From Deltaproteobacteria bacterium (GTDB lineage Bacteria > Myxococcota > Kuafuiibacteriia > Kuafuiibacteriales > Kuafuiibacteriaceae): DNA of 64,000 nucleotides. A program made the position numbers and the translations under genes. This document shows, piece by piece, positions 1,087 through 47,936 of the stretch. Numbering within the stretch: position 1 is the stretch's first letter; every line of letters begins with the position of its first letter. The stretch covers positions 192,001-256,000 of the forward strand of contig JAVJQW010000018.1 in assembly GCA_040218735.1 (NCBI GenBank). Direction: 5' to 3'. A model generated the notes under the pieces. That model was given only the letters and a program-made list of their open reading frames with translations, searched no databases and was not told where the DNA came from.

Positions 1087-4000
1087 GGCGAAGTGGTCTC
1101 CTTTGCGAGGTCCATGCAGACACGAAGCCCGACCGACCCGACGCGCAGCGAGGACACGGCGACTGCGCGGTTGGTGAGGCGGTTGGTCTTGGCGTCGTAG
1201 AAGAAGCTGCCGCCTCGGAGCACGAACGTGCTCGTCGAGGTGGCCGCGGTGGTCCATTCGAAGGCGTTGCCCGCCATGTCGGCGAGGTCGAAGGGGCTGT
1301 CGGAGTCGGGGTGCGCGCCGACCTCGTCCGGGCCCATCCCGCCGGGCGCCTTGGCGTACGTCTGGTCGAAGTTGATCGCGTCGGGGTCGAGGACGTTGGC
1401 GTGCGGGTACTCGCGACGGTCGGCGCCGCGCGCGGCTCGCTCCCACTCGCGCTCGGTGCACAGGCGCGCGCCGGGGACGCGCTTCGTATCGTTCAGCCAC
1501 GCGAGGTACGGCTGTGCGTCGTCCGCGGAGACGCCCGTCACCGGCATCCGCAACCAATCTTGCGCTCGGCGGCGATCGCGATCCGGGTAGCGGATCGGCT
1601 CGCCCGAGCGCGCGCGATACGTGACCTTCGCGGGTCGCATCGTGACCGACCACCCTCGCGCGTCGCGGGTGAGTGCCTGGCCGCCCGACGTGAGGCCGGC
1701 GTCGTTCATCTCGGACCCGAGGAGGGCGGCGCGGGACTTCTTGGGGAGGTCGTCGAGGAACGCGAGCCACTGTTCGTAGGTCACTTCGTGTCGCGCGATC
1801 GCAAACGCGGGGAGCGTCGCGGTGTGGGCGGGGACCGCGTCGAAGAAGCCGATTCGGGACTCGTCGTCCGCGGTGCTCCCGTAGACGAAACGCCCCGCGG
1901 GCACATAAACGAACCCGTCCGGGAGCGGTGGTGGTGCCGCGCGTACGTCCAGGCGCAACCGTTCGCCGCGGGTGACCACGAACGGGTACCGCACCGTCGT
2001 TCCCTCGTGCGGGACCGAGAGCCGATACGAGCCCGGGGGCAACGTCACCGCTTCGGTCACGGCTTGGTCGACGGCGACCGGCACGAAGCGGTGGTCTTCG
2101 GAGCCGTAGCGTTCGAGCGTCGCCGAGGTTTGCGCCGGGAGGCCGACGAGCTCGACGGTCGCCGGCGCATTCCAGCGTTCGCGCAGTGTGCCTCCGTCGT
2201 CGTAGAGGGCGAGGCGATCCAGGAGCTCCGACGCGAGCGCGGGTTCTTCGCGGAGCTCTGCGAGCGTCGCGCGCGCGTAGAGGAGCTCGGCGAAGCGCTC
2301 GCGGAGGTCGTCCCGGTCGGGGCGGTGGCCGATCGCCCGCTCCACGTGCTGGAGCGCCTCGCGGTACTTGTCCTCCGCGCGCTCCGCGGCGAGCTTCGCG
2401 GCCGACCACTTCTCCTCCGCGTCTTCGTCGGCGCGATCGAACGCGGCGAAGGCGTCGTGGCGATGCACGTCGTGCTCGCCGCGCGCGGCCTCGGCTTCGG
2501 TGCTCGCTGCGAGGCCCTGCGCGAGCGCCTCCTGTGCGCGGCGTTCGGCGACGCTGTGTTGGTACGCGTAGAAGCCGACCAAAGAGAGCACGACGAAGAG
2601 CGGCGGCGACACGAAGCGCGCGATGCGGCGGGTGCGTTGCCGACGTACGCGGCCGTGGGACGCGGCGAGGAACGCAGCACCATCGGGGCTCGGATCGATG
2701 CGATCGACGAGCGGCGCGATCTCCTCGAGCTGCGTCGTCGACCACAGCGCTTCTGTTGCACGGTCGAGGCGCAGCCACTCCTTCACACCCGCGTTGAGCC
2801 GGTCCTGCGCCGCGCGGACGTCCTCGTCCTCGTGACGCCAGCGTACGAACGTCGGCCACCCGGTGATCAGGACCTCGTGGGCGAGCTCGAAGACCGTCGT
2901 GTCGCCGAGCTCCGCGGCGACGACGAGTCGGCCGGCCACGAGCGCGTCGAGGGTCGCGCGGCGGGCGTGGTCGTCGCCCAGGAGGAGCTCCTCTGCGCTG
3001 CGCGCGACCTTCACCCCTTCGTCGGACGTGAGCATGACGAGGAGCGATCGCGCGTGGCGTCGGTGCCCGGCGGGGAGCGCGGCGACGACTTCGTCGGCGT
3101 GTCGCGCGAGCGCGCCGGCGACGCCGCCGAGGCTGTCGAGCGCGGCTTGGGTGATCGTCCCGGCGTCGATGTCTCGGAGGTGCCACAGCTTCTCGAGCGC
3201 GAACTGGAGGAGAGGGAGCGCGCCGCGGCGGTTCTGGGTCGTGGCGTCGACGAGGGCGTCGACGAGCGCTTCACTCTCGAAGCGGATCTGGGTGGCACGC
3301 GCCGGGCCGATGATGACGTCGCGGACGCCGTCCTCGTCGAGCGGGCTCATCACGTGGATGGAGCGGCAGAGCTGCTCGCCGAGGCGGGGCAGGGCGGCGA
3401 GACGCGTCAGGTAGTCGGCGCGCAGCGTGGCGAGGATGCGCACGCCGGGGACGTCGTCGCAGAGGCGCGCGAGGAGCTCGGCGACGCGGTCGCGCTCGGC
3501 TTCGACGCTCTGCGTGCAGAACTCTTCGAGTTGGTCGACGACGAGGACGATGCCGCGTTCGCTTCCGAGCTTCTTACGGAGCTGTGCGGCGAGGTCGTGG
3601 GGGCGCCGCTCGACGAGCTCGAGGAGCGCGTCGGCGCCGATCGCGACGAGCGCGTCGAGGGCGTCGATCAGGGCGGAGAGCGGGTGGCGACCCGGCGTCA
3701 TGCGCGCCGAGGACCAGGTGCGACCGTCGATGCCCTCCGCGAGGCGCGGGACCACGCCGGCGCGGACGAGTGAAGACTTGCCGAGCCCGGAGTCACCGGT
3801 GACGACGACGAGCGAGGCGGTTCGCAGCTTGTCGAGGACACGTTCGACGTCGCGCTCGCGGCCGAAGAACAAGGCGCGGTGGCGCGCGTCGAACGCGGCG
3901 AGGCCGCGGTACGGGTTGCCTTCGGGGACGGGGCCGACGCGCTGATCGCGCCGGAGGTGCTCCAGCGCATCGGCGAGGGCCTCGGCGCTCTCGAACCGCG

Positions 4001-36950: not shown

Positions 36951-37218
36951 TTTCGGCCCACGTAGCAGGGGTGGCCGGCGTTTGCAGCAACAACGGTGGT
37001 TGACGACCGTGACGCACCTCGTTATGGATCGTCTCGGCAATGCGGCCTTCCTTCCCCGGATGTTGTTGTCTGTGTCTCTGCGGCTGCTGGGCCTGAGACC
37101 ACCACACCAGTCTCACGAGCCGGGCAGCCGCGTTCTTCGACGCCACACCCTCTGACAACTCGAAGAAAAGGATCGCCGCGCACGATGGTTGTGCGCCGCG
37201 TCCGAAGGAAGACCGACC

Positions 37219-38199
37219 ATGGCTGCCAACTCCGCGACCCCCACGATTCACATCATCCACGAGAACGACGCGTGGACCGCACCGCTCGAAGCCGAGCTGG
37301 AGCGTCTGAACCTGCCGTTCACCGCGTGGTTCCTGGACCAGGGGCACTTCGACCTGTCGTCGCCTCCGCCGGAGGGGGTCTTCTACAACCGCATGAGCGC
37401 GTCGTCGCACACGCGCGATCACCGCTACGCGCACGAGTACACGTCAGCGGTCGTCGCGTGGTTGGAGCTGCACGGGCGCCGCGTCCTCAACGGCACGCGC
37501 GCGAATCAGCTCGAGGTCACGAAGGCCGGGCAGTACGCGGTGCTCGAGGCGCACGGCATCAAGACGCCGCGCACGATCCCGGCGCTCGGTCGTGACCACA
37601 TCCTGGAGGCGGCGCGTGCCTTCGAAGGCGCGCCGTTCATCACCAAACACAACCGCGCCGGGAAGGGCCTCGGCGTGCACCTGTTCCGCTCGGTCGAAGC
37701 GCTCGAGACGTACCTCGACGGCCCCGAGTTCGAGGCGCCGGTCGACGGAATCACGCTGATCCAGCAGTACATCGAAGCGCCCGAGCCGTTCATCACGCGC
37801 GTCGAGTTCGTGGGCCAGGAGTTCCTGTACGCGGTCCGCGTCGACACGTCGGACGGCTTCGAGCTGTGCCCGGCCGACGCGTGCTCGATCGAAGGCCTCA
37901 ACTGCCCGGCGACGCCGCAGGCGGAGGCGCCGCGCGCGAAGTTCGAGATCATCGAGGGCTTCGACAGCCCGCTGATCGAGAAGTACCGCGAGGTGATGCG
38001 CGCGAACGACTTCGCGATCGCGGCGTTCGAGCTCATCGTGGACCGCGACGGCGTCGCGTACACCTACGACATCAACCAGAACACCAACTACAACTCGGCG
38101 GCGGAGGCCGTCGCCGGCAAGTTCGGGATGCGCGCGATCGCCGAGTACCTCGGCGCCGAGCTGCGCAAGCGCTACGGCGCCGTGACCGCGGCGGCCTGA
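37219..38199 (+). CDS. RimK-like ATP-grasp ligase
   Basis: NRMSASSHTR, KHNRAGKGLGV, LIQQYI, YDINQNTNYN; GAAGGA RBS upstream. Confidence 0.82.
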   Translation: MAANSATPTIHIIHENDAWTAPLEAELERLNLPFTAWFLDQGHFDLSSPPPEGVFYNRMSASSHTRDHRYAHEYTSAVVAWLELHGRRVLNGTRANQLEVTKAGQYAVLEAHGIKTPRTIPALGRDHILEAARAFEGAPFITKHNRAGKGLGVHLFRSVEALETYLDGPEFEAPVDGITLIQQYIEAPEPFITRVEFVGQEFLYAVRVDTSDGFELCPADACSIEGLNCPATPQAEAPRAKFEIIEGFDSPLIEKYREVMRANDFAIAAFELIVDRDGVAYTYDINQNTNYNSAAEAVAGKFGMRAIAEYLGAELRKRYGAVTAAA

Positions 38200-38205
38200 G
38201 TCGCC

Positions 38206-41097
38206 TCAGACCGCGGGGATCAACACGCCGAGGAGCACGTCGCTCGCCTTGCGTACGTCGGGGACCTCGTCCTTGGCGATGCGTTCGGCGAGGGCACGAA
38301 GCTCCTCGGTGGACTGGTCGAACTCGGGGCTGTCGGCGGCGTCGCCCAGGAGGTTCGCGAGCGTGAAACACGCCGTCTCGCGGACGACCGGGTCGCGGGA
38401 CTCGAGGTGGCGCGCGACGCCGTTGCGCACCGCGAGCATCCGCCGTTCGCCGACGAGGTGCAGCGTGCACGTGACGACCCAGGGGTGCGTGTCCTTCAGC
38501 AGGCGCGCGAGCCACGTGTTGGCGTCGGCGCGCTCGAGGTCGAACAACTCGTGGCCGGCCTTGAGCTTCTCTTCGAAGGTGTGGTCCTCGAGGAGCGGGA
38601 GGAGCACGCGTTTCTCTTCCTTCGACAGGAGGTTGTCCACGACCTCGATCGCGTTCGCGCGCACCACTTTGTTCTCGGCGTCGAGGTTCGTGTAGACGAG
38701 CTGGATCGTGCGCGACGGATAGCGAATCTCGAGGAGCCGGAACGCGAGCCCGAGTTTGCTCTGGTGGCGCACGAACAGCGCCTCGACCAGGAGGTGGTCC
38801 TCGGGGAGGCCGAGGTCGGCGATGACCGCGAGGGCCTGGTAGGCGTCGCGGATCTCCGTCTCGATCGCCTTGTCGAGGACCTCGTCCAACACCCGGACGC
38901 CCGGCGACCGTTCGCGGATCCGCGCCGAGGCGCGCGCGATGTTGGCGCGCAGCTCGGCGTCGTCGGTGTCGAGGTTCTCGAGGAGCTTCGTCACCGCGTC
39001 CTGCTCGCCGATGCGCCCGAGGATCTTCGGGACGAGGCGCCGGATGAGGATGTCTTCCCGTTTGTTGCGGAGCACCTTGAACAGCGTCTTCTCGATCTCG
39101 CGGCCGTAGCCGATCAGCGCGCGCACCGCCGCGGTGTTGCAGGTGCGGTCGGAGAGTTTGTAGACGAGCGACGGCACCAGCTCACGGCTCTGCATCTCCC
39201 CCGCGGCCTCCACCGCCGCGAGGCGAACGACCGGGTCCTCGTCCTGTAGCAGCTCGAGCACCGGCTGGAAGAAGTTGCGGACCTTGATCGCCCCGAGCAC
39301 CCGCGCGCCCTGCAAGCGCTCTTGCGGGTCGTCGCTGGAGAGGAAGTGTTTGAGGGTCTCGGCTGCGGTGAGGATGCCGTCGAGGCCGCCGTGGAGGATC
39401 AGCGCCGCGACGGCCGCCGCGCGGACCTCGCCGCTCGGGTCGTTGAGGAACGGGCTCGCGGCGCGGATCGCACGCTCGCGACCGATCGCGCAGAACGCGC
39501 CGATCGCCGCCGCGCGGACCTTGGGGTGCTCGTCGGCGAGCAGCGGGTGAATCGCGCTCGCGCCCTCCACCCGGCCGGACGTACCGATCTCCTTGACCGC
39601 CGCGATGCGAACCTCCTGCGAGGGGTGCTCGAGCAGCTCGGCGAGCTCCTCGTAGAAGTCGGCTTCGAGTGACGGCAGCAGCTCCAGCGCGTGCAGGACG
39701 TGTTGCTCGTCGTCGGAGAGGAGGCGTGTCTTCAGCGTCTTGAGCGTGGCGTCGTCGACGACGGGCGACCAGGTGTCGCCGAGGTCGAGGCGCCGCGCGT
39801 GCAGCGTCTCGATCAACGACTTCACGTACTCGCCGCGGATGCCGACGACGAGGAAGATCCAACCGCCCAGCAGCGCGATGTCCGCGAAGGCGAGGTTTTC
39901 GACGAGCTGCTCGGACGTGAACGCGCGCCCCAGCAGATAGATCACCAGACCGGAGACGCCGATGCTCGCCGGCTTCAGGATGCCGTCGATGAACGCCTTC
40001 GCGCGCCCGCGGTTGTGCGAGGGCACCGGGACGTAGAGGAGCTGCATCGTGGCGTCGTTCACCGTGTAGCGGAAGATGTTCTCCGCGCCCTTCGCGACGG
40101 TGACCGCGACGAGCATCGAGATCATCGGCACGAACAACATCGCGCCCGCGCCCGAGAGGATCGCGACGGGCAGGACCAGCAGCGAGATGACGATGCCCGA
40201 GCGCTCGAGCAGCCGTCCGGTCACGAAGAACTGCATCAGACTCGAGATGATCCCGGTGAAGCCGTAGAAGTACCCGAAGAACGACGCGAGCTCACCCTCG
40301 CCGGACAGCTGCATCTTCGCGACGACCTTGAACTGGTAGTCGACGACCGTGACCGTGAGGAACGTCAGCACGACGATGCCGGCGATCAGCTTGAGGTGTT
40401 TGCTGTGGAGGACGGTGCCGGACTCGCGCTGAATCCGGAGCGAGCGCTTGCGCGGCTTGCGCACCGCCGCCTCGAGGTCGCGCACGGAGCGCTTGCCGAT
40501 CGCACGCACGGCGAGGGTGCACAGGAAGAAGATCGACCCGGTGATCAGGAGGAGGTTCGAGCTCCCGATCACCGGCGCGATCGCGCCGATGCCGAACCCG
40601 CAGATGATGTTCGACAGGACGCCGCCCGCGCCGATGAAGCCGAACAGGCGCTTGCCCTGGCGTCCGCTGAAGATGTCGCTCGCGAACGTCCAGAACTGGA
40701 TGATGGAGATCGCGCCGAGGATCTCCACGAGCACGTAGAGGACCGCGTACATCCACGTGCCCCCGGAGCTCAGCGTGATGATGCTCCAGAAGCCGAACGA
40801 CGTCGCCGAGAAGATCATCAGCGTCGAGACGATCAACTTGTCGCGCCGGTACTTGTCGGCGACCCGGCTGTACACGTACGCCGCCATCGCCACCGCGACG
40901 GCCGTCGCCATGTACATCAGCGGCAGCTTGCCGAGGTCCACGCGGTGCAGGAACAGCGTGTCGCGAACGGTGCGCCCGATGATGAACGTCGACACGACGC
41001 CCATCAGGTAGAAGAACATCAAGAAGACTTGGCGCGCCTCGCCGGGCCGGATCCGGAAGGCCGAGTCGAGCAGCCCATCAACGTTGACGCGCGCCAT
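38206..41097 (-). CDS. NTT/TLC-family nucleotide transporter homologue fused to HEAT repeats
   Basis: IRPGE, RDTLFL, QFWTFASDIF..KRLFGFIGAGG, VDYQFK, LYVPVP..RAKAFID, then repeated VRxAAV HEAT motifs. Confidence 0.87.
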   Translation of the reverse strand: MARVNVDGLLDSAFRIRPGEARQVFLMFFYLMGVVSTFIIGRTVRDTLFLHRVDLGKLPLMYMATAVAVAMAAYVYSRVADKYRRDKLIVSTLMIFSATSFGFWSIITLSSGGTWMYAVLYVLVEILGAISIIQFWTFASDIFSGRQGKRLFGFIGAGGVLSNIICGFGIGAIAPVIGSSNLLLITGSIFFLCTLAVRAIGKRSVRDLEAAVRKPRKRSLRIQRESGTVLHSKHLKLIAGIVVLTFLTVTVVDYQFKVVAKMQLSGEGELASFFGYFYGFTGIISSLMQFFVTGRLLERSGIVISLLVLPVAILSGAGAMLFVPMISMLVAVTVAKGAENIFRYTVNDATMQLLYVPVPSHNRGRAKAFIDGILKPASIGVSGLVIYLLGRAFTSEQLVENLAFADIALLGGWIFLVVGIRGEYVKSLIETLHARRLDLGDTWSPVVDDATLKTLKTRLLSDDEQHVLHALELLPSLEADFYEELAELLEHPSQEVRIAAVKEIGTSGRVEGASAIHPLLADEHPKVRAAAIGAFCAIGRERAIRAASPFLNDPSGEVRAAAVAALILHGGLDGILTAAETLKHFLSSDDPQERLQGARVLGAIKVRNFFQPVLELLQDEDPVVRLAAVEAAGEMQSRELVPSLVYKLSDRTCNTAAVRALIGYGREIEKTLFKVLRNKREDILIRRLVPKILGRIGEQDAVTKLLENLDTDDAELRANIARASARIRERSPGVRVLDEVLDKAIETEIRDAYQALAVIADLGLPEDHLLVEALFVRHQSKLGLAFRLLEIRYPSRTIQLVYTNLDAENKVVRANAIEVVDNLLSKEEKRVLLPLLEDHTFEEKLKAGHELFDLERADANTWLARLLKDTHPWVVTCTLHLVGERRMLAVRNGVARHLESRDPVVRETACFTLANLLGDAADSPEFDQSTEELRALAERIAKDEVPDVRKASDVLLGVLIPAV

Positions 41098-41135
41098 CGG
41101 GGGACGGGGAGCTTACCCCGGGGTGGGGCCGGGGG

Positions 41136-41164
41136 CGAGCGCCGCGATGTGACCGCGGCGCTCG
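41136..41164 (-). terminator. 11-bp perfect stem-loop just after the mdh stop
   Basis: CGAGCGCCGCG-ATGTGAC-CGCGGCGCTCG; no U-tract, so it may instead be a stabilising hairpin. Confidence 0.5.
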
Positions 41165-41172
41165 GGGGGAAG

Positions 41173-42186
<1,014 letters not shown>

Positions 42187-43512
42187 CTACCAGGAAGCCT
42201 GCGAAGCCGTGCGCTTCATCGCCTGGCGGACGCGCGACTTCCGGACCTCTTCGAAGTTCTCGACGATCGCTTCGCAGAACTGCGCGGTCGTGAGCGTCGC
42301 AACGTCGTCCTGGATGAAGCTCGCGAGGTCCGGCGTGACCTTCTTGTCGGAGATCGTCTTGATGAGCGCGTTGGTCACCAGCTCCGCCGAGTCCTTCCAC
42401 CCGAGGTGGTCGAACAGCATCACACCGCAGAGGAGCACCGACGTGGGGTTCTCTTCCTCGGCCTCGCCAATCTTGGGGAGGAGGTGGTGCGTCGACTCGA
42501 AGATCGCCGCCTTCGCGCCGACGTACGCCTGCGGTGCGAGCCCGATCTGACCGACCATCGCGAGGCCCATCTGCTCGATGTAGTGCCCGTTGAGGTTGGT
42601 GGTCGCGACGATGTCGAACTGGTCCGGCTTCAGCAGCATCTGCTGGAAGAACTTGTCCGTCGAACGGTCCCGGATCACGACGCGGCCGCGCGGCGGCTCG
42701 CCGTCGTGCTCCTCCATCACTTCCTTCTCGGTGACGGTGTACTCGCCGAACTCCTTGCGCGCGATCTCGTAGCCCCAGTCGCGGAAGAAACCTTCCGTGT
42801 GGCGCATGATCGAGCCCTTGTGCACGAACGTGACGGAGCGCTTCTTGTGTTTGATTGCGTACTCGATCGCGAGGCGGATGAGCCGCTTCGTCGCCGTCGC
42901 GCTGATCGGCTTGATGCCGATGCTCGAGTCCGGCCGGACCTTCTTGTCGATCTTCTTGCCGAGGTCGTCGTTCAGGATGCCGATGAGCTGCTTGGCCTCC
43001 GGCGACCCCTTCTTCCACTCCATCTCCGCGAAGACGTCCTCGGTGTGCTCGCGGAAGACGAGGATGTCGAGGCCGTGCGGATCCTCGAGGGGCGTCGGCG
43101 CACCGTCGAGGTGATGGATCGGCATGAGGTGCGCGAACAGGTCGAGACGATCGAAGAACGCTTCGTCGAGCGAAGCGCCACCGACGGGCGTCGTCAGCGG
43201 ACCCTTGATGCAGACCTTGTACTCCTGCACGGCGCGCACGGTGTCTTCGGGCAGCCGCTGGGCGGGGCCGTACACTTCGACCGCGCGCTCACCCGCGAAG
43301 ACCTCCAGCCACTCGAGGCGCTTCGCGTTTGCGTAGCAGCGCTCCACGGCGAGGTCGAACACCTCTTGGACGGGCCCCCAGATCTCCGTGCTGATCCCCT
43401 CCCCCTGAATGAACGGAACGATCGGGTCGTCGGGGACCTGAAGCTGACCATTCTTCGCGACCGTGATCTTCGAGCCGCGCTTGGGGGGTGTGATCTTGAG
43501 ATACTTGCCCAT
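42187..43512 (-). CDS. icd: Isocitrate dehydrogenase (E. coli Icd-type) homologue with a degenerate active site
   Basis: IKGPLTTPVGG, FRE, IGIKPIS, VHKG.IM, TEG.F.DWGY, NLNG, FE.TH, NP; full length with no frameshift, but catalytic residues are substituted (see findings). Confidence 0.85.
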   Translation of the reverse strand: MGKYLKITPPKRGSKITVAKNGQLQVPDDPIVPFIQGEGISTEIWGPVQEVFDLAVERCYANAKRLEWLEVFAGERAVEVYGPAQRLPEDTVRAVQEYKVCIKGPLTTPVGGASLDEAFFDRLDLFAHLMPIHHLDGAPTPLEDPHGLDILVFREHTEDVFAEMEWKKGSPEAKQLIGILNDDLGKKIDKKVRPDSSIGIKPISATATKRLIRLAIEYAIKHKKRSVTFVHKGSIMRHTEGFFRDWGYEIARKEFGEYTVTEKEVMEEHDGEPPRGRVVIRDRSTDKFFQQMLLKPDQFDIVATTNLNGHYIEQMGLAMVGQIGLAPQAYVGAKAAIFESTHHLLPKIGEAEEENPTSVLLCGVMLFDHLGWKDSAELVTNALIKTISDKKVTPDLASFIQDDVATLTTAQFCEAIVENFEEVRKSRVRQAMKRTASQASW

Positions 43513-43756
43513 CGGGCGTTGCGATCTACCAAGCCCACCAGAATCTGCAACCCAAAAGACGGCGCGATCGCGGCTGTATTTTTGTCTGGAATGTGATACG
43601 GCCTCGGCCTTTTTCCCGGCGCGGATCTCGTTCGCCCCGTCCGCACAACGTTTGGTGCGATCCGATCAGTATCCTGCGGTCTACGATCCACACCCGGAGG
43701 ACGGGCGTTTTCCCGATGGGGCAGGCGTCCGATCGCCGCAAGGCCCGAGTTGGACC

Positions 43757-44920
43757 TCAGAACAGGTGGTTCATGTGGGGCCCGCGCGGCACGAACAGCT
43801 GCTCCGCGCGGGTGATCGCGGCGTCGCTCCCCGACAGTCCTCCCATCGCGCGGAGCGTCGTCGCGGAGCGGTAACCACAGAACAACGTCGCGAACGTTCG
43901 CGCGTCCGTTCGCACCACGTGCTCGCCGCGGTAACGCGACACCGAAGCACGTCCGTCCTCCACGTGCAGCGTGTACACGCCGGCGTTGCCGCCCACGTGT
44001 TCGTCCTCCACTTCGAACGTCAGCGCACCGCGCACACCCTCCGGATAGCCGCGCGCCTCGAGCGCCTTCGCGACGTGCGTGAGGCGGAGCATCCACGTCA
44101 TGTCGAGCTTCACCTCGTAGTGGTGCTCCGGCCACAGACCGAGGAACGGATCACTCGGCGGCGCCGCCCAGGACAGCTGCTTCACGAAGCTGCGGTGCGT
44201 GAAGAAGAAGTCGAGCAGGCGTCGGTGCGCGTCGGGTGTCGTCGCGACGAGGTCCGTGAGCTCGAAGTCGTGCAGCACACCCGACGCGGTCTTCTTGAAG
44301 ACGGTGTAGCCGACGAGCGCGCCGTCCTCTTCCACGACGAAGCGCTCCGTCCGTTCGAAGCGCGGCGAGAAGATCCGCGACCACACGTAGGGCCCGCGCC
44401 TCAGGTTGCCGTCGTCGCGACGCACCCGCTCCTCGAGCGCCTTCATCGCCGGCACGTCCGCGTCCGTCGCTTCGCGCAAGCTCGCCTTCGATTCGAATCG
44501 CCGTAGACCGTCGGTCTTCGCGCGCACCGCGAACAGGTCGCCGGCGAGGCCGTAACCGACGCGCCGGTACAGGCCGACGGTCGCGGGGTACAGCGTCGAG
44601 ACCGGGACGCCCTCCTCGTGAAGCTCGCGGCACAGGCCGACCATCAGCTGCTTCGCGAGGCCTCGCCCGCGGTGCGCCGGCGCGACGCCCACCCCCGCGA
44701 CGCCGCAGTTGTCGAGCGCGCGCCCGCCGAACCAGATGCCCTGCGGGATGCGGAGCAGGCACGCCTCGACGTCGCTCCCGGTGGCGATGACGCGCAACGT
44801 CTCGCGCCCGGCGCGCTCCAGCCAGCCCTCCGCCATCTCGACGTCGACGTTGAACGTGTACGCCATGACCTCGAGGAGGCGTTCGATGTGGCGGTCTTCG
44901 AGGGGCTGGTAGGTCGACAC
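43757..44920 (-). CDS. Eis-like GNAT acetyltransferase with C-terminal SCP2-like domain
   Basis: GVGVAPAHRGRGLAKQLM, STLYPAT..LYRRVGY, WMLRL..V.KALEARGY, terminal F. Confidence 0.87.
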   Translation of the reverse strand: MSTYQPLEDRHIERLLEVMAYTFNVDVEMAEGWLERAGRETLRVIATGSDVEACLLRIPQGIWFGGRALDNCGVAGVGVAPAHRGRGLAKQLMVGLCRELHEEGVPVSTLYPATVGLYRRVGYGLAGDLFAVRAKTDGLRRFESKASLREATDADVPAMKALEERVRRDDGNLRRGPYVWSRIFSPRFERTERFVVEEDGALVGYTVFKKTASGVLHDFELTDLVATTPDAHRRLLDFFFTHRSFVKQLSWAAPPSDPFLGLWPEHHYEVKLDMTWMLRLTHVAKALEARGYPEGVRGALTFEVEDEHVGGNAGVYTLHVEDGRASVSRYRGEHVVRTDARTFATLFCGYRSATTLRAMGGLSGSDAAITRAEQLFVPRGPHMNHLF

Positions 44921-44999
44921 GGCGGCGCAGTAGGCAACGGGCCCACCGCGTTGGCAATGCCGTGTTCTGACTTCGCGGTCGCGAGACCACACAAACCTC

Positions 45000-45043
45000 G
45001 ATCTTTTTTGCGCGCGGTCGGCGCGGCGCGAAAGGGGAGTCGT
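45000..45043 (+). promoter_or_regulatory. Candidate ECF promoter, copy 1 (GATC-T6-GCGC-N16-GAAA-N7-CGT)
   Basis: Same blocks and spacing as the motif at 49644-49688; lies upstream of the ECF sigma gene. Confidence 0.5.
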
Positions 45044-45071
45044 GGTGAAAGGAACGAACGCCGGCTGAGCG

Positions 45072-45731
45072 ATGGTTGCTCTGGCCCATCGGTTGCTCGA
45101 CCGCCCGCCTCGACCTACCGTCGATGCCCCGGTGAACGATACGGGGGACGCGGCCACGATGCAGGCCAACGAGGGCCTCGCCGAAGGGCGCCCGGAGGCG
45201 TTCGAGCGGGTGTATCGCGCCGAGCTGCGCGCCGTGATGCTCACGCTCGTGGCCGGGTTCCACTACCGCTCCGCGGGGGCGTCGAAGTACCTGCGCGTCG
45301 ACAGCGCGAGTGACGCCGAGGAGATCTGCCAAGAGGCGTTCGCGCAGTTCTTCGCGCAGTGTCGCCGCGGCCGCTTCGACCCGTCGCGGCCGGTGCGTCC
45401 CTACCTACGGCGCATCACGATGAACATCGCGCTGAGGAAGATGGGGCGCCTGTCGCGCGAGGTGCCGACCGAGCTCGTCGACATCGGACCGGCGCCCGAG
45501 CAGGACACCGTCGAGCAACGCGAGCGGGCCGCGCTCCTCAGCGAGTTCAAGGGCCGGCTCGACGACGAAGAACGTGAAGTCATGTCGCTGTACTTCGAGG
45601 CCTCCGGGGCGACGCAGGCCGAGGTCGGCAAGAAGATCGGACGCTCGCGTGACCACGTGTACCGGGTCGCGATGCGGATCCGACAGCAGGCGAAGGAGTT
45701 CTTCGCCGCAAAGGGGTGGTTCGATGAATGA
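45072..45731 (+). CDS. ECF sigma-70 factor
   Basis: GRPEAFERVY, DAEEICQEAF, YLRRITMNIA (region 2); LDDEEREV..TQAEVGKKIGRSR (region 4); start uncertain. Confidence 0.87.
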   Translation: MVALAHRLLDRPPRPTVDAPVNDTGDAATMQANEGLAEGRPEAFERVYRAELRAVMLTLVAGFHYRSAGASKYLRVDSASDAEEICQEAFAQFFAQCRRGRFDPSRPVRPYLRRITMNIALRKMGRLSREVPTELVDIGPAPEQDTVEQRERAALLSEFKGRLDDEEREVMSLYFEASGATQAEVGKKIGRSRDHVYRVAMRIRQQAKEFFAAKGWFDE

Positions 45732-46503
45732 CCACGAAGCGCGCGCGCTCATCGATCGGCAGTTCGAGCAGGGCGTCCTCCCGCCGGACGACGCGCTACG
45801 GCTGCGCGAGCACCTCGCTTCCTCGCCGGACGCGCGCGCCTACTACGACGCGCACGTTCGTCTGGAGCGAACGCTGGAGGGCGACGACGTCCCGGACGCG
45901 CAGCTCGCCCGCCTGGAGGCGCTCGGGCCTCCGGCGCCCGCCGACGCCCTCGACGACTCGGCGCCGAAGCGGCGGGCGCCCTACGCGCTCGGGGGGATCG
46001 GCGCGGTGCTCGCGGTCGCGGCGAGCGTCGCCATCGTGGCGCTCATCGACGACGGCGAGGTGCGCACGCGGGGCGGTCCGGCGTCGGGCGCCAAGGCGTG
46101 GATCAACGTCTTCGCCGCGTCGGGCGACGCGGTTCGCCCGCTCACCGACGGCGCGACGGTCGCGAAGGACAGCGGCCTGTTGTTCTCCTACTCCGCGCTA
46201 CGCGACGCGCCGTTTCGCTACTTCGCGATCGCGGCGCGTGACGAGTCGGGGCGGGTGTACTGGTTCCATCCTGCGTTCGTGGAGGACGTGAGCCCCAAGA
46301 GCCTCGCGCTCGACGTCGGTGTCGCCGACCGCGAGCTGACCGAGCGGGTGTTCGTCGACTGGTCGCCGGGTCGCGCCCGGATCTGTGCCATCTTCACGCG
46401 GGAGGCGCTCATGATCGCAGAGGTGGACGCGAGGCTCGAACGGGACGGCCGTTGGCCGGACGGCGCGCAGCTCGACTGCCACGACGTGAAGGTGACACCT
46501 TGA
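45724..46503 (+). CDS. Putative single-pass anti-sigma factor with extracytoplasmic domain
   Basis: LREHLASSPDARAYYD (zf-HC2-like without Cys), TM VLAVAASVAIVAL, then VRTRGG; overlaps the sigma stop. Confidence 0.7.
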   Translation: MNDHEARALIDRQFEQGVLPPDDALRLREHLASSPDARAYYDAHVRLERTLEGDDVPDAQLARLEALGPPAPADALDDSAPKRRAPYALGGIGAVLAVAASVAIVALIDDGEVRTRGGPASGAKAWINVFAASGDAVRPLTDGATVAKDSGLLFSYSALRDAPFRYFAIAARDESGRVYWFHPAFVEDVSPKSLALDVGVADRELTERVFVDWSPGRARICAIFTREALMIAEVDARLERDGRWPDGAQLDCHDVKVTP

Positions 46504-47917
46504 CGCCCGGGGCGCTCGCCGTCGTCGCGCTGCTTGCCGCCGCGCCGAAGTACGTCGTCGTCATCGGCCACAACGCGAGTGATCGTCCCCAGCGCGGCGC
46601 GCTGCGGTACGCCGACGACGACGCCGCGCGGTTCTACGAGCTCCTCTCGATGGGCAGCACCGAGAGCTACTTGTTCACGAGCTTCGACACCGAATCGCAG
46701 GAGCTCTTCGACGGCCTCCGCCCCGTCGCGCGTGTCCCGCGCAAGGACGACGTGATGGCCGCCTTCGCGAACATCCGCGCGGGCATCGAAGCGAACCGCG
46801 ACGCGGAGGTGTACTTCTTCTACGCGGGGCACGGCGACATCGAAGACGGCGTCGGCTACCTCACGCTCGCGGACGGTCGCCTCACCCGCGACGACTTCAG
46901 CGACGCGCTCCTGAAGGCCGGCGCGGCGCGCACGCACGTGATCGTCGACGCGTGTAAATCGTACTTCTTCGTCGCGGGGCGCGGGCGCGGGGGGCGCCGC
47001 GTCCCGCAGACCACGCCGTTCGCGGGACCGGAGCGGCTCCCGGGCGTGGGGTACGTGCTTTCGACGAGCAGCGACGCCGACTCCCACGAGTGGTCGGCGT
47101 TCAACGGCGGCATCTTCTCGCACGAGGTGCGGAGTGGTCTGGTCGGCGGCGCGGACGCCAACCACGACGGTACCGTCGACTACCAAGAGCTCGGCGCCTT
47201 CGTCGCGCTCGCGAACGCCTCGGTGCCGTCGCCTGCGTTCCGCCCGGACGTCTACGTGCGCGCGCCGCCCGACGAGGACGACGCGACGATCTTCTCGCCC
47301 GCGGACCTGACGTCGACGCTGACCGTGGAGCTCGCGATGACCGACACCGGGCGCGTGATGGTGCACGACCAACGCGGCCTGCGATACGCCGACGCGAACA
47401 AGGCGGGGGAGGCGCCGCTGCGGATCACGTTGCTGCAGCCGTGGCGCTACGAGGTTCGGGTGGGCGGGCGTCACTACGACGTCGACCCCGGCCAAGGGGA
47501 GGTGCGGCTCGCCGAGCTGACACCGAGCACCGAGATGCTCGCGGCGCGGGGCGAAGCGCACCGAGCGTTCGAGCACCTCTTCGCGACCGCGTTCTCCGAG
47601 GACGTCGTGCTCGGCTACGGGCTGCGTCCGCCGGATCCGGGGGAGGTTCGGATCATCGAGAAGGAGAAGATCGTCGAGCGCATCACGGCGACGCCCCCGC
47701 CTCCGTCGAACCCGTGGCCGGCGGCGCTCACGGGGGGCGGCGCGGCGCTGCTCGCGTCCGGGGTGATCGTCGCGGGGCTCGCGGTCTCGGCGCGCTCCGA
47801 GCTCGCGGAGGCGTCGCAGCAGGACCTCGCTTCGATCGACGCGCGCGCCGACGCGCTGGAGGTCGGCGCGGGGGTGCTGTTCGGCGTGGGTGCGAGCGCG
47901 GCGATTACGGGGGTGGT

Positions 47918-47936
<19 letters not shown>
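46500..47936 (+). CDS. Caspase-family (peptidase C14) protein, probably exported and membrane anchored
   Basis: VVIGHN, LRYADDDA, FFYAGHG (His), IVDACKS (Cys), FSHEVRSGLVGGADANHDGTV; hydrophobic N-terminus; two C-terminal hydrophobic helices. Confidence 0.88.

Follow-up and report, generated by a model that had tools for sequence, protein, structure and literature searches.

Results

An icd homologue upstream of mdh

The window analysed here, a stretch of 64,000 nucleotides of contig JAVJQW010000018.1 from a bacterium of the phylum Myxococcota, carries on its minus strand a homologue of icd, the gene for isocitrate dehydrogenase (IDH), followed by an intact gene for malate dehydrogenase, mdh (Table 1). 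We refer to this Icd homologue, which is predicted to be a pseudoenzyme, as pIcd. The two genes are probably co-transcribed.

Residues 32-416 of pIcd match the PF00180 (Iso_dh) profile over positions 2-348 of 348 with 186.9 bits (cut-off 27). The closest solved relative is the IDH of Archaeoglobus fulgidus (2iv0, E 1.9e-119), the Icd structure entries of Escherichia coli follow at E ~1e-108, and pIcd shares 43% identity and a similar length with E. coli Icd. An AlphaFold2 (AF2) model built on 68 clade sequences has a predicted local distance difference test score (pLDDT) of 84.8 and a predicted template modelling score (pTM) of 0.85, and aligns to 2iv0_A in Foldseek with template modelling (TM) scores of 0.82/0.88. 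Domain score and fold both place pIcd in the PF00180 superfamily. The protein falls outside both equivalogs for the prokaryotic NADP-dependent isocitrate dehydrogenase, scoring 470.4 bits on TIGR00183 (curated cut-off 567.3) and 436.4 on NF005425 (cut-off 490); the canonical Icd paralogue of the same genome, which served as positive control, scores 656.6 and 689.3, respectively.

Table 1. Positions of pIcd, its segments and the genes downstream of it in the window
Feature	Position	Strand	Remarks
pIcd, Icd-fold pseudoenzyme gene	42187..43512	-	intact open reading frame (ORF), 441 aa, ATG start; stop codon 42187-42189
Nearly invariant N-terminal segment, codons 1-30, with KRGS motif	43423..43512	-	24/30 residues invariant over 19 genomes
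Degenerate phosphorylation loop and isocitrate site, residues 112-130	43123..43179	-	2-residue gap, D116 = N115D, F120 = R119F, M130 = R129M
Codon 161, F replacing catalytic Y160	43030..43032	-	from alignment
Lost metal ligands, residues 308-315 (NGHYIEQM)	42568..42591	-	D307H and D311Q; from alignment
Degenerate NADP-binding loop, residues 342-348 (HHLLPKI)	42469..42489	-	from alignment
Basic C-terminal extension, residues 420-441 (NFEEVRKSRVRQAMKR...), clade-specific	42190..42255	-	prolongs the last helix; absent from the canonical Icds compared
mdh, intact malate dehydrogenase	41173..42108	-	PF00056 and PF02866; 78 bp downstream of pIcd
TLC/MFS (major facilitator superfamily) transporter fused to HEAT repeats, 963 aa	38206..41097	-	PF03219, PF07690; long C-terminal HEAT-repeat domain; downstream of mdh

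Lost and retained residues of the active site

We aligned pIcd with the Icd of E. coli K-12 (from NC_000913) and with the canonical paralogue of its own genome (alignment A1; E. coli numbering is used for active-site residues). The segment SLNVALR has become SLDEAFF (N115D, V116E, R119F), with a 2-residue gap preceding S113, while LRP reads LMP (R129M), EDIY reads EDVF (Y160F), NGDYISD reads NGHYIEQ (D307H, D311Q), HGTAPKY reads HHLLPKI (G340H, T341L, A342L, Y345I) and TYDFER reads TPDLAS (Y391P, R395S). Retained are S113, R153, K230, D283, Q287, H339, K344 and N352, and R292 is replaced by K. The next-best hits in the database are canonical IDHs with 47-51% identity, of which 48 of 48 match E. 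coli at these positions, save one T104S. By this comparison, the degeneration of the pIcd active site far exceeds chance, and the aligned protein has a complete set neither of the isocitrate and catalytic residues, nor of the metal ligands, nor of the NADP-pocket residues of a catalytic Icd. We thus predict that it is catalytically dead.

The losses are shared to different degrees within the pIcd clade, for which 68 database sequences were compared; these are mutually related, so that the following residue counts are descriptive only. N115 is kept in none (D in 68/68), R129 in 1/68 (Q in 52/68) and D311 in 0/68, whereas R119 is kept in 58/68, R153 in 67/68, K100 in 68/68 and N352 in 65/68. Position 160 is Y in 34/68 and F in 24/68, D307 is kept in 17/68, and in the NADP pocket G340 remains in 13/68, A342 in 2/68, Y345 in 4/68 and Y391 in 6/68. 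Among the 19 genome orthologues, Y160 is kept in 11, D307 in 4, S113 in 5, R119 in 18 and R153 in 19, while N115, R129 and D311 are kept in none. Basal members of the clade (G008, G010, G009 and the P0050/P0055 group) retain more, namely Y160, K230 or R, D283 or E, and D307; they nonetheless have N115D as well and are without R129 and D311, a combination which fits inactivation on the stem of the clade, followed by lineage-by-lineage erosion of the other sites.

Distribution and selection

Orthologues were sought in 401 genomes of the phylum, the window genome (G000) included, with a presence threshold of E <= 1e-145. pIcd is found in 19/401: G000 itself and all but one of the 19 further genomes of its family (18/19). 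Across 35 other families it is found in 0/381 genomes. The 18 orthologues, 58-78% identical to the window protein, are all full length and stop-free. Among 5.8 billion proteins searched by word index, about 68 are clade members with at least 55% identity; after a gap come canonical IDHs at 51% or less. In a profile search of 1.84 billion representatives clustered at 50% identity, the clade is a single representative with 840.8 bits, and the canonical IDHs come next with at most 464.1. The two closest database relatives of the window pIcd (93% and 89% identity) both retain K230 and D283. Clade members carry the database names "isocitrate dehydrogenase" or "NADP-dependent isocitrate dehydrogenase".

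The sole family genome without a pIcd match, G001, is 75% complete and split into 1480 contigs. It belongs to the same genus, and on its contig C329 (L066, 5476-5678) an mdh 96% identical to that of the window is preceded by only the last 13 recognisable pIcd codons; beyond these lie about 100 unrelated bases up to the contig end, and 124 end bases have no match in G000.

The ratio of nonsynonymous to synonymous rates (dN/dS, omega), calculated by the method of Nei and Gojobori (NG86), is 0.059 (G005-G019) and 0.064 (G007-G015) for pIcd in the two closest pairs. The control genes give similar values in these pairs: mdh has 0.066, canonical Icd 0.047 and 0.051. When the 130 pairs (of 171) with dS < 2 are taken together, pIcd has a median of 0.238 and a maximum of 0.415, and in comparison with mdh and canonical Icd its dN is ~1.6x and its omega ~1.3x. 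With its catalytic residues lost and its orthologues intact, pIcd is, by the sequence comparisons above, a pseudoenzyme under purifying selection.

With an effective number of codons (ENC) of 30.4, pIcd has a codon bias like that of housekeeping genes that are expressed; mdh has an ENC of 26.3 and canonical Icd one of 27.3. Parts of pIcd and mdh are covered by RNA-library contigs of close relatives, 88-99% alike, in two metatranscriptome runs of one study, which contain 0.13 and 0.10 of the sampled words; these contigs come from relatives and possibly include DNA, so that they cannot rank expression and their uncovered stretches are uninformative. Promoter and terminator scans of positions 38000-45300 gave nothing exceeding the shuffled expectation.

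Where constraint acts now

We compared conservation in the 68 pIcd sequences (mean pairwise identity 0.667) and in 48 neighbouring canonical IDHs (0.694). Columns with at least 93% conservation number 164 in pIcd and 178 in the canonical IDHs, and 72 are common to both. Conservation is lower in pIcd than in the canonical enzymes at E. coli positions 101-120 (0.71 vs 0.93), 141-160 (0.69 vs 0.87), 301-320 (0.66 vs 0.97) and 341-360 (0.57 vs 0.89), as well as at 281-300 (0.59 vs 0.86), a segment that comprises helix i with D283, Q287 and R292 and is among the least conserved. It is higher in the first 20-25 residues (0.94 vs 0.49), and further gains are seen at E. coli positions 56-64, 90-98, 166-180 (clasp), 330-332 and 357-375, plus the C-terminal extension. 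Sorted by the domain limits that we take to be those of the E. coli structure, the gained columns fall in the large domain (36), the clasp (6) and the small domain (7). The clasp as a whole is more conserved in pIcd than in the canonical IDHs (0.834 vs 0.773), and both clasp and helix h are well conserved.

In the N-terminal segment, synonymous variation is present at 23/23 of the invariant columns that have degenerate codons, which indicates that it is the protein sequence, rather than the DNA or RNA, that is constrained. The conserved columns of the C-terminal extension are V423, K425, R427, V428 and R434, and the AF2 model places a helix at residues 409-439. As far as conservation reports on constraint, it has moved from the active site to the N-terminal 30 residues and the C-terminal helix, together with the clasp and patches within the large domain.

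Other IDH genes in the family

The window genome contains five PF00180 genes in total, one of which, on contig C42, is a canonical Icd paralogue with all catalytic residues present. It shares 42-43% identity with pIcd, and the two proteins belong to different Icd clades. A canonical dimeric Icd is found in 16/20 family genomes; it was not found in G003, G006, G009 and G017, which are 91-98% complete, and pIcd is present in all four. Three of these (G003, G009, G017; 3/20 in the family) have the monomeric IDH (PF03971). pIcd is still constrained where canonical Icd was not found, as in the pair G017-G019 with an omega of 0.10. pIcd is independent of a dimeric catalytic Icd.

A further candidate is a short-type, IDH-like gene of 334 aa, at 1486-2487 (-) of L001 (G000:C55) in the window genome, whose product scores best on NF006529 'isocitrate dehydrogenase' (476.5 bits, cut-off 510). 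It occurs in 16/20 family genomes, was not found in G002, G009, G011 and G012, and in G006 is the only candidate IDH found. We considered and rejected a universal co-occurring IDH partner, as neither canonical Icd nor monomeric IDH nor the 334-aa gene tracks pIcd.

Two of the canonical genes are incomplete. That of G014 is cut by the contig end. That of G004 (C66:278731-280019, L051), ~10 kb from the pIcd of this genome, is matched in two pieces that overlap: one covers residues 4-140 and has a TGA in its open frame, the other covers 134-433. This pattern suggests a frameshift or an assembly error.

Fate of the residues donated between subunits

The original prediction for this DNA had described a full-length pseudoenzyme upstream of an intact mdh, kept by selection rather than decaying, and a catalytically complete icd elsewhere in the genome. 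These points are borne out: every residue change that it listed is present in the alignment to E. coli Icd, the frame and its mdh neighbour are as described, the closest pairs have a low dN/dS, and the second icd is the canonical paralogue on C42. The prediction further held that the asymmetric retention of K230 and D283, residues that one subunit of the Icd dimer contributes to the site of the other, marks pIcd as the donor subunit that completes a catalytic Icd. The regulatory subunits of eukaryotic NAD-dependent IDH (NAD-IDH) donate the equivalent Lys and Asp.

This part of the prediction is not supported across the clade. K230 is kept in 7/19 and D283 in 4/19 of the genome orthologues, and both are kept in 4/19 (G000, G016, G008, G010). 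Of the 68 database members, 46 have K230, 34 have D283 and 32 have both, with R292 present in 7; the residues of pIcd's own site are kept in similar numbers (Y160 in 34, R119 in 58, R153 in 67). Moreover, a subunit that completes canonical Icd is hard to reconcile with the four genomes that keep pIcd where no canonical dimeric Icd was found. Judged from these counts, the K230/D283 asymmetry is a trait of the window's lineage and not of the clade. Random loss of the two residues in orthologues, one of the outcomes that the prediction had named beforehand as contradicting it, is largely what we find, whereas a dN/dS near 1, another such outcome, was not seen. Compared with the non-catalytic subunit of a heteromeric IDH, pIcd thus has the degenerate site of its own, but neither conserved donor residues nor an obligate catalytic partner.

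Origin and genomic surroundings

A maximum-likelihood tree of 66 rows was calculated with the 'quick' method, for which E. coli served as an arbitrarily chosen outgroup. All 31 pIcd rows in it fall into a single clade with a support of 100 in the Shimodaira-Hasegawa-like approximate likelihood ratio test (SH-aLRT), on the longest internal branch (stem 0.58). The clade nests among canonical Icds of ~415 aa, including icd genes located directly upstream of mdh in other families (L026-L029), while the canonical paralogue of the family sits in a separate, B. subtilis-like clade (16 rows, SH-aLRT 100). The mdh gene lies directly downstream of pIcd at 15/18 orthologue loci. In G009 (L025, C98) the TLC/HEAT transporter gene comes directly after pIcd, with no mdh between; in G016 (L067, C42) mdh is found elsewhere, and pIcd is separated from the TLC/HEAT gene by two unrelated ORFs, of which one has an HExxH-like AHEQAH motif; and in G007 the pIcd locus ends at the contig edge. 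The nesting in the tree and the mostly conserved linkage to mdh make pIcd the positional descendant of the icd in an ancestral icd-mdh pair.

The TLC/HEAT transporter gene neighbours pIcd in the family, even in G009, but we dropped a functional link between the two: relatives of the transporter occur in 280/401 phylum genomes, often in two copies (a tally that includes the unpublished genome G195), so that its distribution is not specific to pIcd. Upstream of pIcd there is no conserved neighbour at the orthologue loci, where upstream ORFs are common only to groups of 2-3 loci. The window itself has at 43757-45244 (-) an acetyltransferase with Eis-like GNAT, GNAT and SCP2 domains and an unusually low GC content at third codon positions (GC3, 0.70), further on an ECF-type (extracytoplasmic function) sigma factor at 45072-45731 (+), an ORF without Pfam match that is possibly an anti-sigma factor at 45574-46503 (+) and a caspase-like Peptidase_C14 protein at 46452-47936 (+), and on the other side a RimK-like ATP-grasp protein at 37189-38199 (+). 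None of these five genes is kept beside pIcd in the other genomes compared.

Degenerate Icd homologues outside the clade

Among the top matches of the profile search, 38 of the 66 full-length representatives with at least 380 aa, the clade's own representative excluded, are changed at one or more of nine core positions. Such representatives include P0139, P0191, P0146, P0151 and P0127, which come from metagenomes and have several core catalytic residues replaced. One such representative is a protein of a Bacteroidota metagenome-assembled genome (MAG), which bears the name 'isocitrate/isopropylmalate family dehydrogenase'; another, listed as 'hypothetical protein', stands for an 8-member cluster from Leptospiraceae. 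Some of the changed representatives may be gene-call or alignment errors, and others may be independent lineages of dead Icds. Degenerate Icds may nonetheless be commoner than is recognised.

Discussion

A dead Icd that may act by binding

Taking these observations together, we consider it probable that an ancestral icd has turned into a conserved, dead protein that acts by binding a partner, and not by donating K230' and D283' to a catalytic Icd. The icd of an icd-mdh pair would have been converted to pIcd in the common ancestor of one Myxococcota-type family, and isocitrate oxidation would be supplied by others: canonical dimeric Icd in most members, monomeric IDH in some, and the 334-aa IDH-like enzyme in many. 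As the Icd fold and the conserved clasp and helix h are kept, pIcd probably still dimerises. The substrate, metal and NADP sites would be drifting, with selection acting instead on the N-terminal 30 residues, the basic C-terminal helix, and patches in both the large domain and the clasp. Through these new surfaces pIcd would bind a candidate partner, which could be a central-metabolism protein such as Mdh, a tricarboxylic acid (TCA) cycle assembly, or a polyanion such as RNA, and its role would be that of a regulator or scaffold. According to the accessible part of one study, ICD and MDH interact physically in Bacillus subtilis and Arabidopsis thaliana (PMC11189929), so that Mdh or a TCA-cycle assembly is a plausible candidate. 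RNA or another polyanion is possible as well, since both new segments are basic. More tentatively, and with the odds rather against so specific a picture, pIcd could be a dead Icd dimer whose N-terminal segment (with KRGS, a possible Ser/Thr-kinase site) and C-terminal helix dock Mdh, a TCA-cycle assembly or RNA, so that it organises or regulates central carbon flux.

Several observations weigh against this proposal. Partner binding is our reading of the conservation pattern. The N-terminal 40 residues reach a pLDDT of just 44-76 in the AF2 model. For the window organism, codon bias and the RNA contigs of relatives hint at expression indirectly. The dS is near saturation in most pairs, so that only the closest pairs and the comparison with the control genes can be trusted. 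Some activity might be left in G008, G010 and the P0050/P0055 group, which are basal in the clade. The remnant in G001 may be a chimeric contig end or assembly artefact, or else a real truncation or loss. Finally, K230 and D283 are kept oftener in the clade than D307 and R292, so that some residual constraint on them is possible in some lineages, and both are kept only in genomes with a canonical Icd (4/15 vs 0/4), numbers that are too small to weigh. An interaction of pIcd with canonical Icd restricted to certain lineages, including that of the window, is possible.

Alternative explanations

The original prediction, that pIcd is a non-catalytic subunit which pairs with canonical Icd and donates K230', D283' and R292', could draw on this co-occurrence, on the retention of K230 and D283 in the window pIcd and its two closest relatives, on the canonical Icd encoded in the same genome and on the well-conserved clasp and helix h. 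We nevertheless regard it as very unlikely: in 11 of the 15 genomes with both genes pIcd is without at least one of K230 and D283, R292 is rarely kept and helix i is weakly conserved. Of the four genomes where pIcd persists and canonical Icd was not found, three have a monomeric IDH that offers no second subunit to receive the residues. Furthermore, the site of canonical Icd is already complete, and a heterodimer would cost it a working partner site. The two proteins might instead form a facultative regulatory heterodimer without residue donation, in which pIcd tunes or dampens canonical Icd via the clasp and has a second role elsewhere. Such an arrangement would account for a clasp that is conserved above the canonical level and suits the 16/20 family genomes that hold both genes, and the accessible part of a preprint describes a bacterial precedent in Thermus GdhA/GdhB (bioRxiv 10.1101/2025.10.31.685773). 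It is unlikely, in our view, given the low identity between the proteins and their separate clades, the equal conservation of pIcd in genomes without the canonical partner, and the location of the gained constraint, which is mostly in the large domain and termini, far in sequence from the interface helices, and leaves the new invariant segments unexplained.

The old pocket might also have been re-used, with a metabolite in the former isocitrate/NADP cleft of a ligand sensor or of an enzyme with new chemistry. The fixed cleft residues (K100, D115, R153, N352, and largely R119 and Q129) are what this would predict, and the invariant N115D looks like a gain rather than drift. On the other hand, S113, V116, Y160, K230, N232, D283, D307, D311 and the stretch 340-345 (with indels) vary among orthologues that are 58-90% identical, there is no conserved metal site, and the bulky replacements A240F (in 88%) and A342L (in 56%) seem to be filling the cleft. 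D115 lies by R119, R153 and K100 and could just neutralise an empty arginine cluster; since the surrounding cleft positions vary, we read the fixed residues as neutralising or filling an empty site, and consider a new pocket quite unlikely. What remains is a slowly decaying pseudogene, or an ORF kept only for the expression of mdh. The lost catalytic residues, the raised nonsynonymous rate and the possibly truncated copy of G001 are in line with decay, but the frame is intact and full length in 19/19 genomes with pIcd, dN/dS is 0.06-0.4, almost as many columns are highly conserved as in the canonical enzymes, and synonymous variation lies beneath the new invariant segments. A role limited to mdh expression does not agree with G016 and G009, which keep pIcd where mdh no longer adjoins. 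Both variants are extremely unlikely, and binding of a partner by a dead Icd is the explanation that we retain.

Comparison with known systems

Among known proteins, the homodimeric prokaryotic NADP-Icd (E. coli Icd, A. fulgidus 2iv0, TIGR00183) shares with pIcd its fold, its length, the site upstream of mdh, the clasp, helix h and the 72 common conserved columns. The canonical enzymes do not have the invariant N-terminus and the basic C-terminal extension of pIcd. In the pIcd clade, loss of N115, R129 and D311 is complete or almost so, and loss of Y160, K230, D283, D307 and the NADP pocket varies between members. The regulatory subunits of eukaryotic NAD-IDH (yeast IDH1; IDH3 beta and gamma) resemble pIcd in being superfamily members that have lost catalytic competence and that selection has retained alongside a catalytic relative. 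They belong, however, to the short NAD-IDH subfamily of ~340 aa (E 1e-16 to 1e-32 to pIcd) and always occur with a catalytic partner, whereas pIcd is of the 415-aa NADP-Icd type, does not conserve the donated Lys/Asp and is present in four genomes where no dimeric catalytic Icd was found. The accessible part of PMC8333347 gives the general division as hetero-oligomeric NAD-IDH with catalytic and regulatory subunits in eukaryotes and mostly homodimeric NADP-IDH in prokaryotes.

The closest functional analogy that we favour for pIcd, and it is put forward as an analogy, may be the pseudoenzyme regulators of Thermus thermophilus. GdhA/GdhB, APRTh and the alanine-dehydrogenase-like ADLP are described, in the available part of the preprint cited above, as inactive homologues that bind and regulate metabolic enzymes. 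They have other folds and belong to other families, and their partners, as far as this source goes, are known and tested, whereas any partner of pIcd is so far putative. In B. subtilis, according to the accessible part of PMC11189929, Icd and Mdh are encoded side by side and interact, and Mdh-mediated clustering alters the output of Icd; that Icd is catalytically active, whereas pIcd is predicted not to be, but pIcd is likewise encoded directly upstream of mdh at most of its loci.

Meaning for the family

The literature that we searched, judged from titles and the beginnings of abstracts and with most subscription journals outside its scope, gave no description of a catalytically dead bacterial Icd, or of Icd in this phylum. 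To our knowledge, the bacterial IDH is the simple homodimer of textbooks, and the only non-catalytic relatives known as regulatory subunits are those of the eukaryotic NAD-IDH. Here, the ancestral icd-mdh locus of a whole bacterial family still encodes a dead Icd, on which selection is comparable to that on neighbouring housekeeping genes. pIcd would thus be a clean natural case of an enzyme that became a binding protein, with the N-terminal 30 residues and the C-terminal helix as handles. If the docking of Mdh, a TCA-cycle assembly or RNA proves true, the degenerate Icds of other phyla, such as those of the Bacteroidota MAG and the Leptospiraceae, would suggest a recurrent and overlooked class. 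For the family itself, as the clade members are named isocitrate dehydrogenase, metabolic reconstructions would give the IDH activity to the wrong gene.

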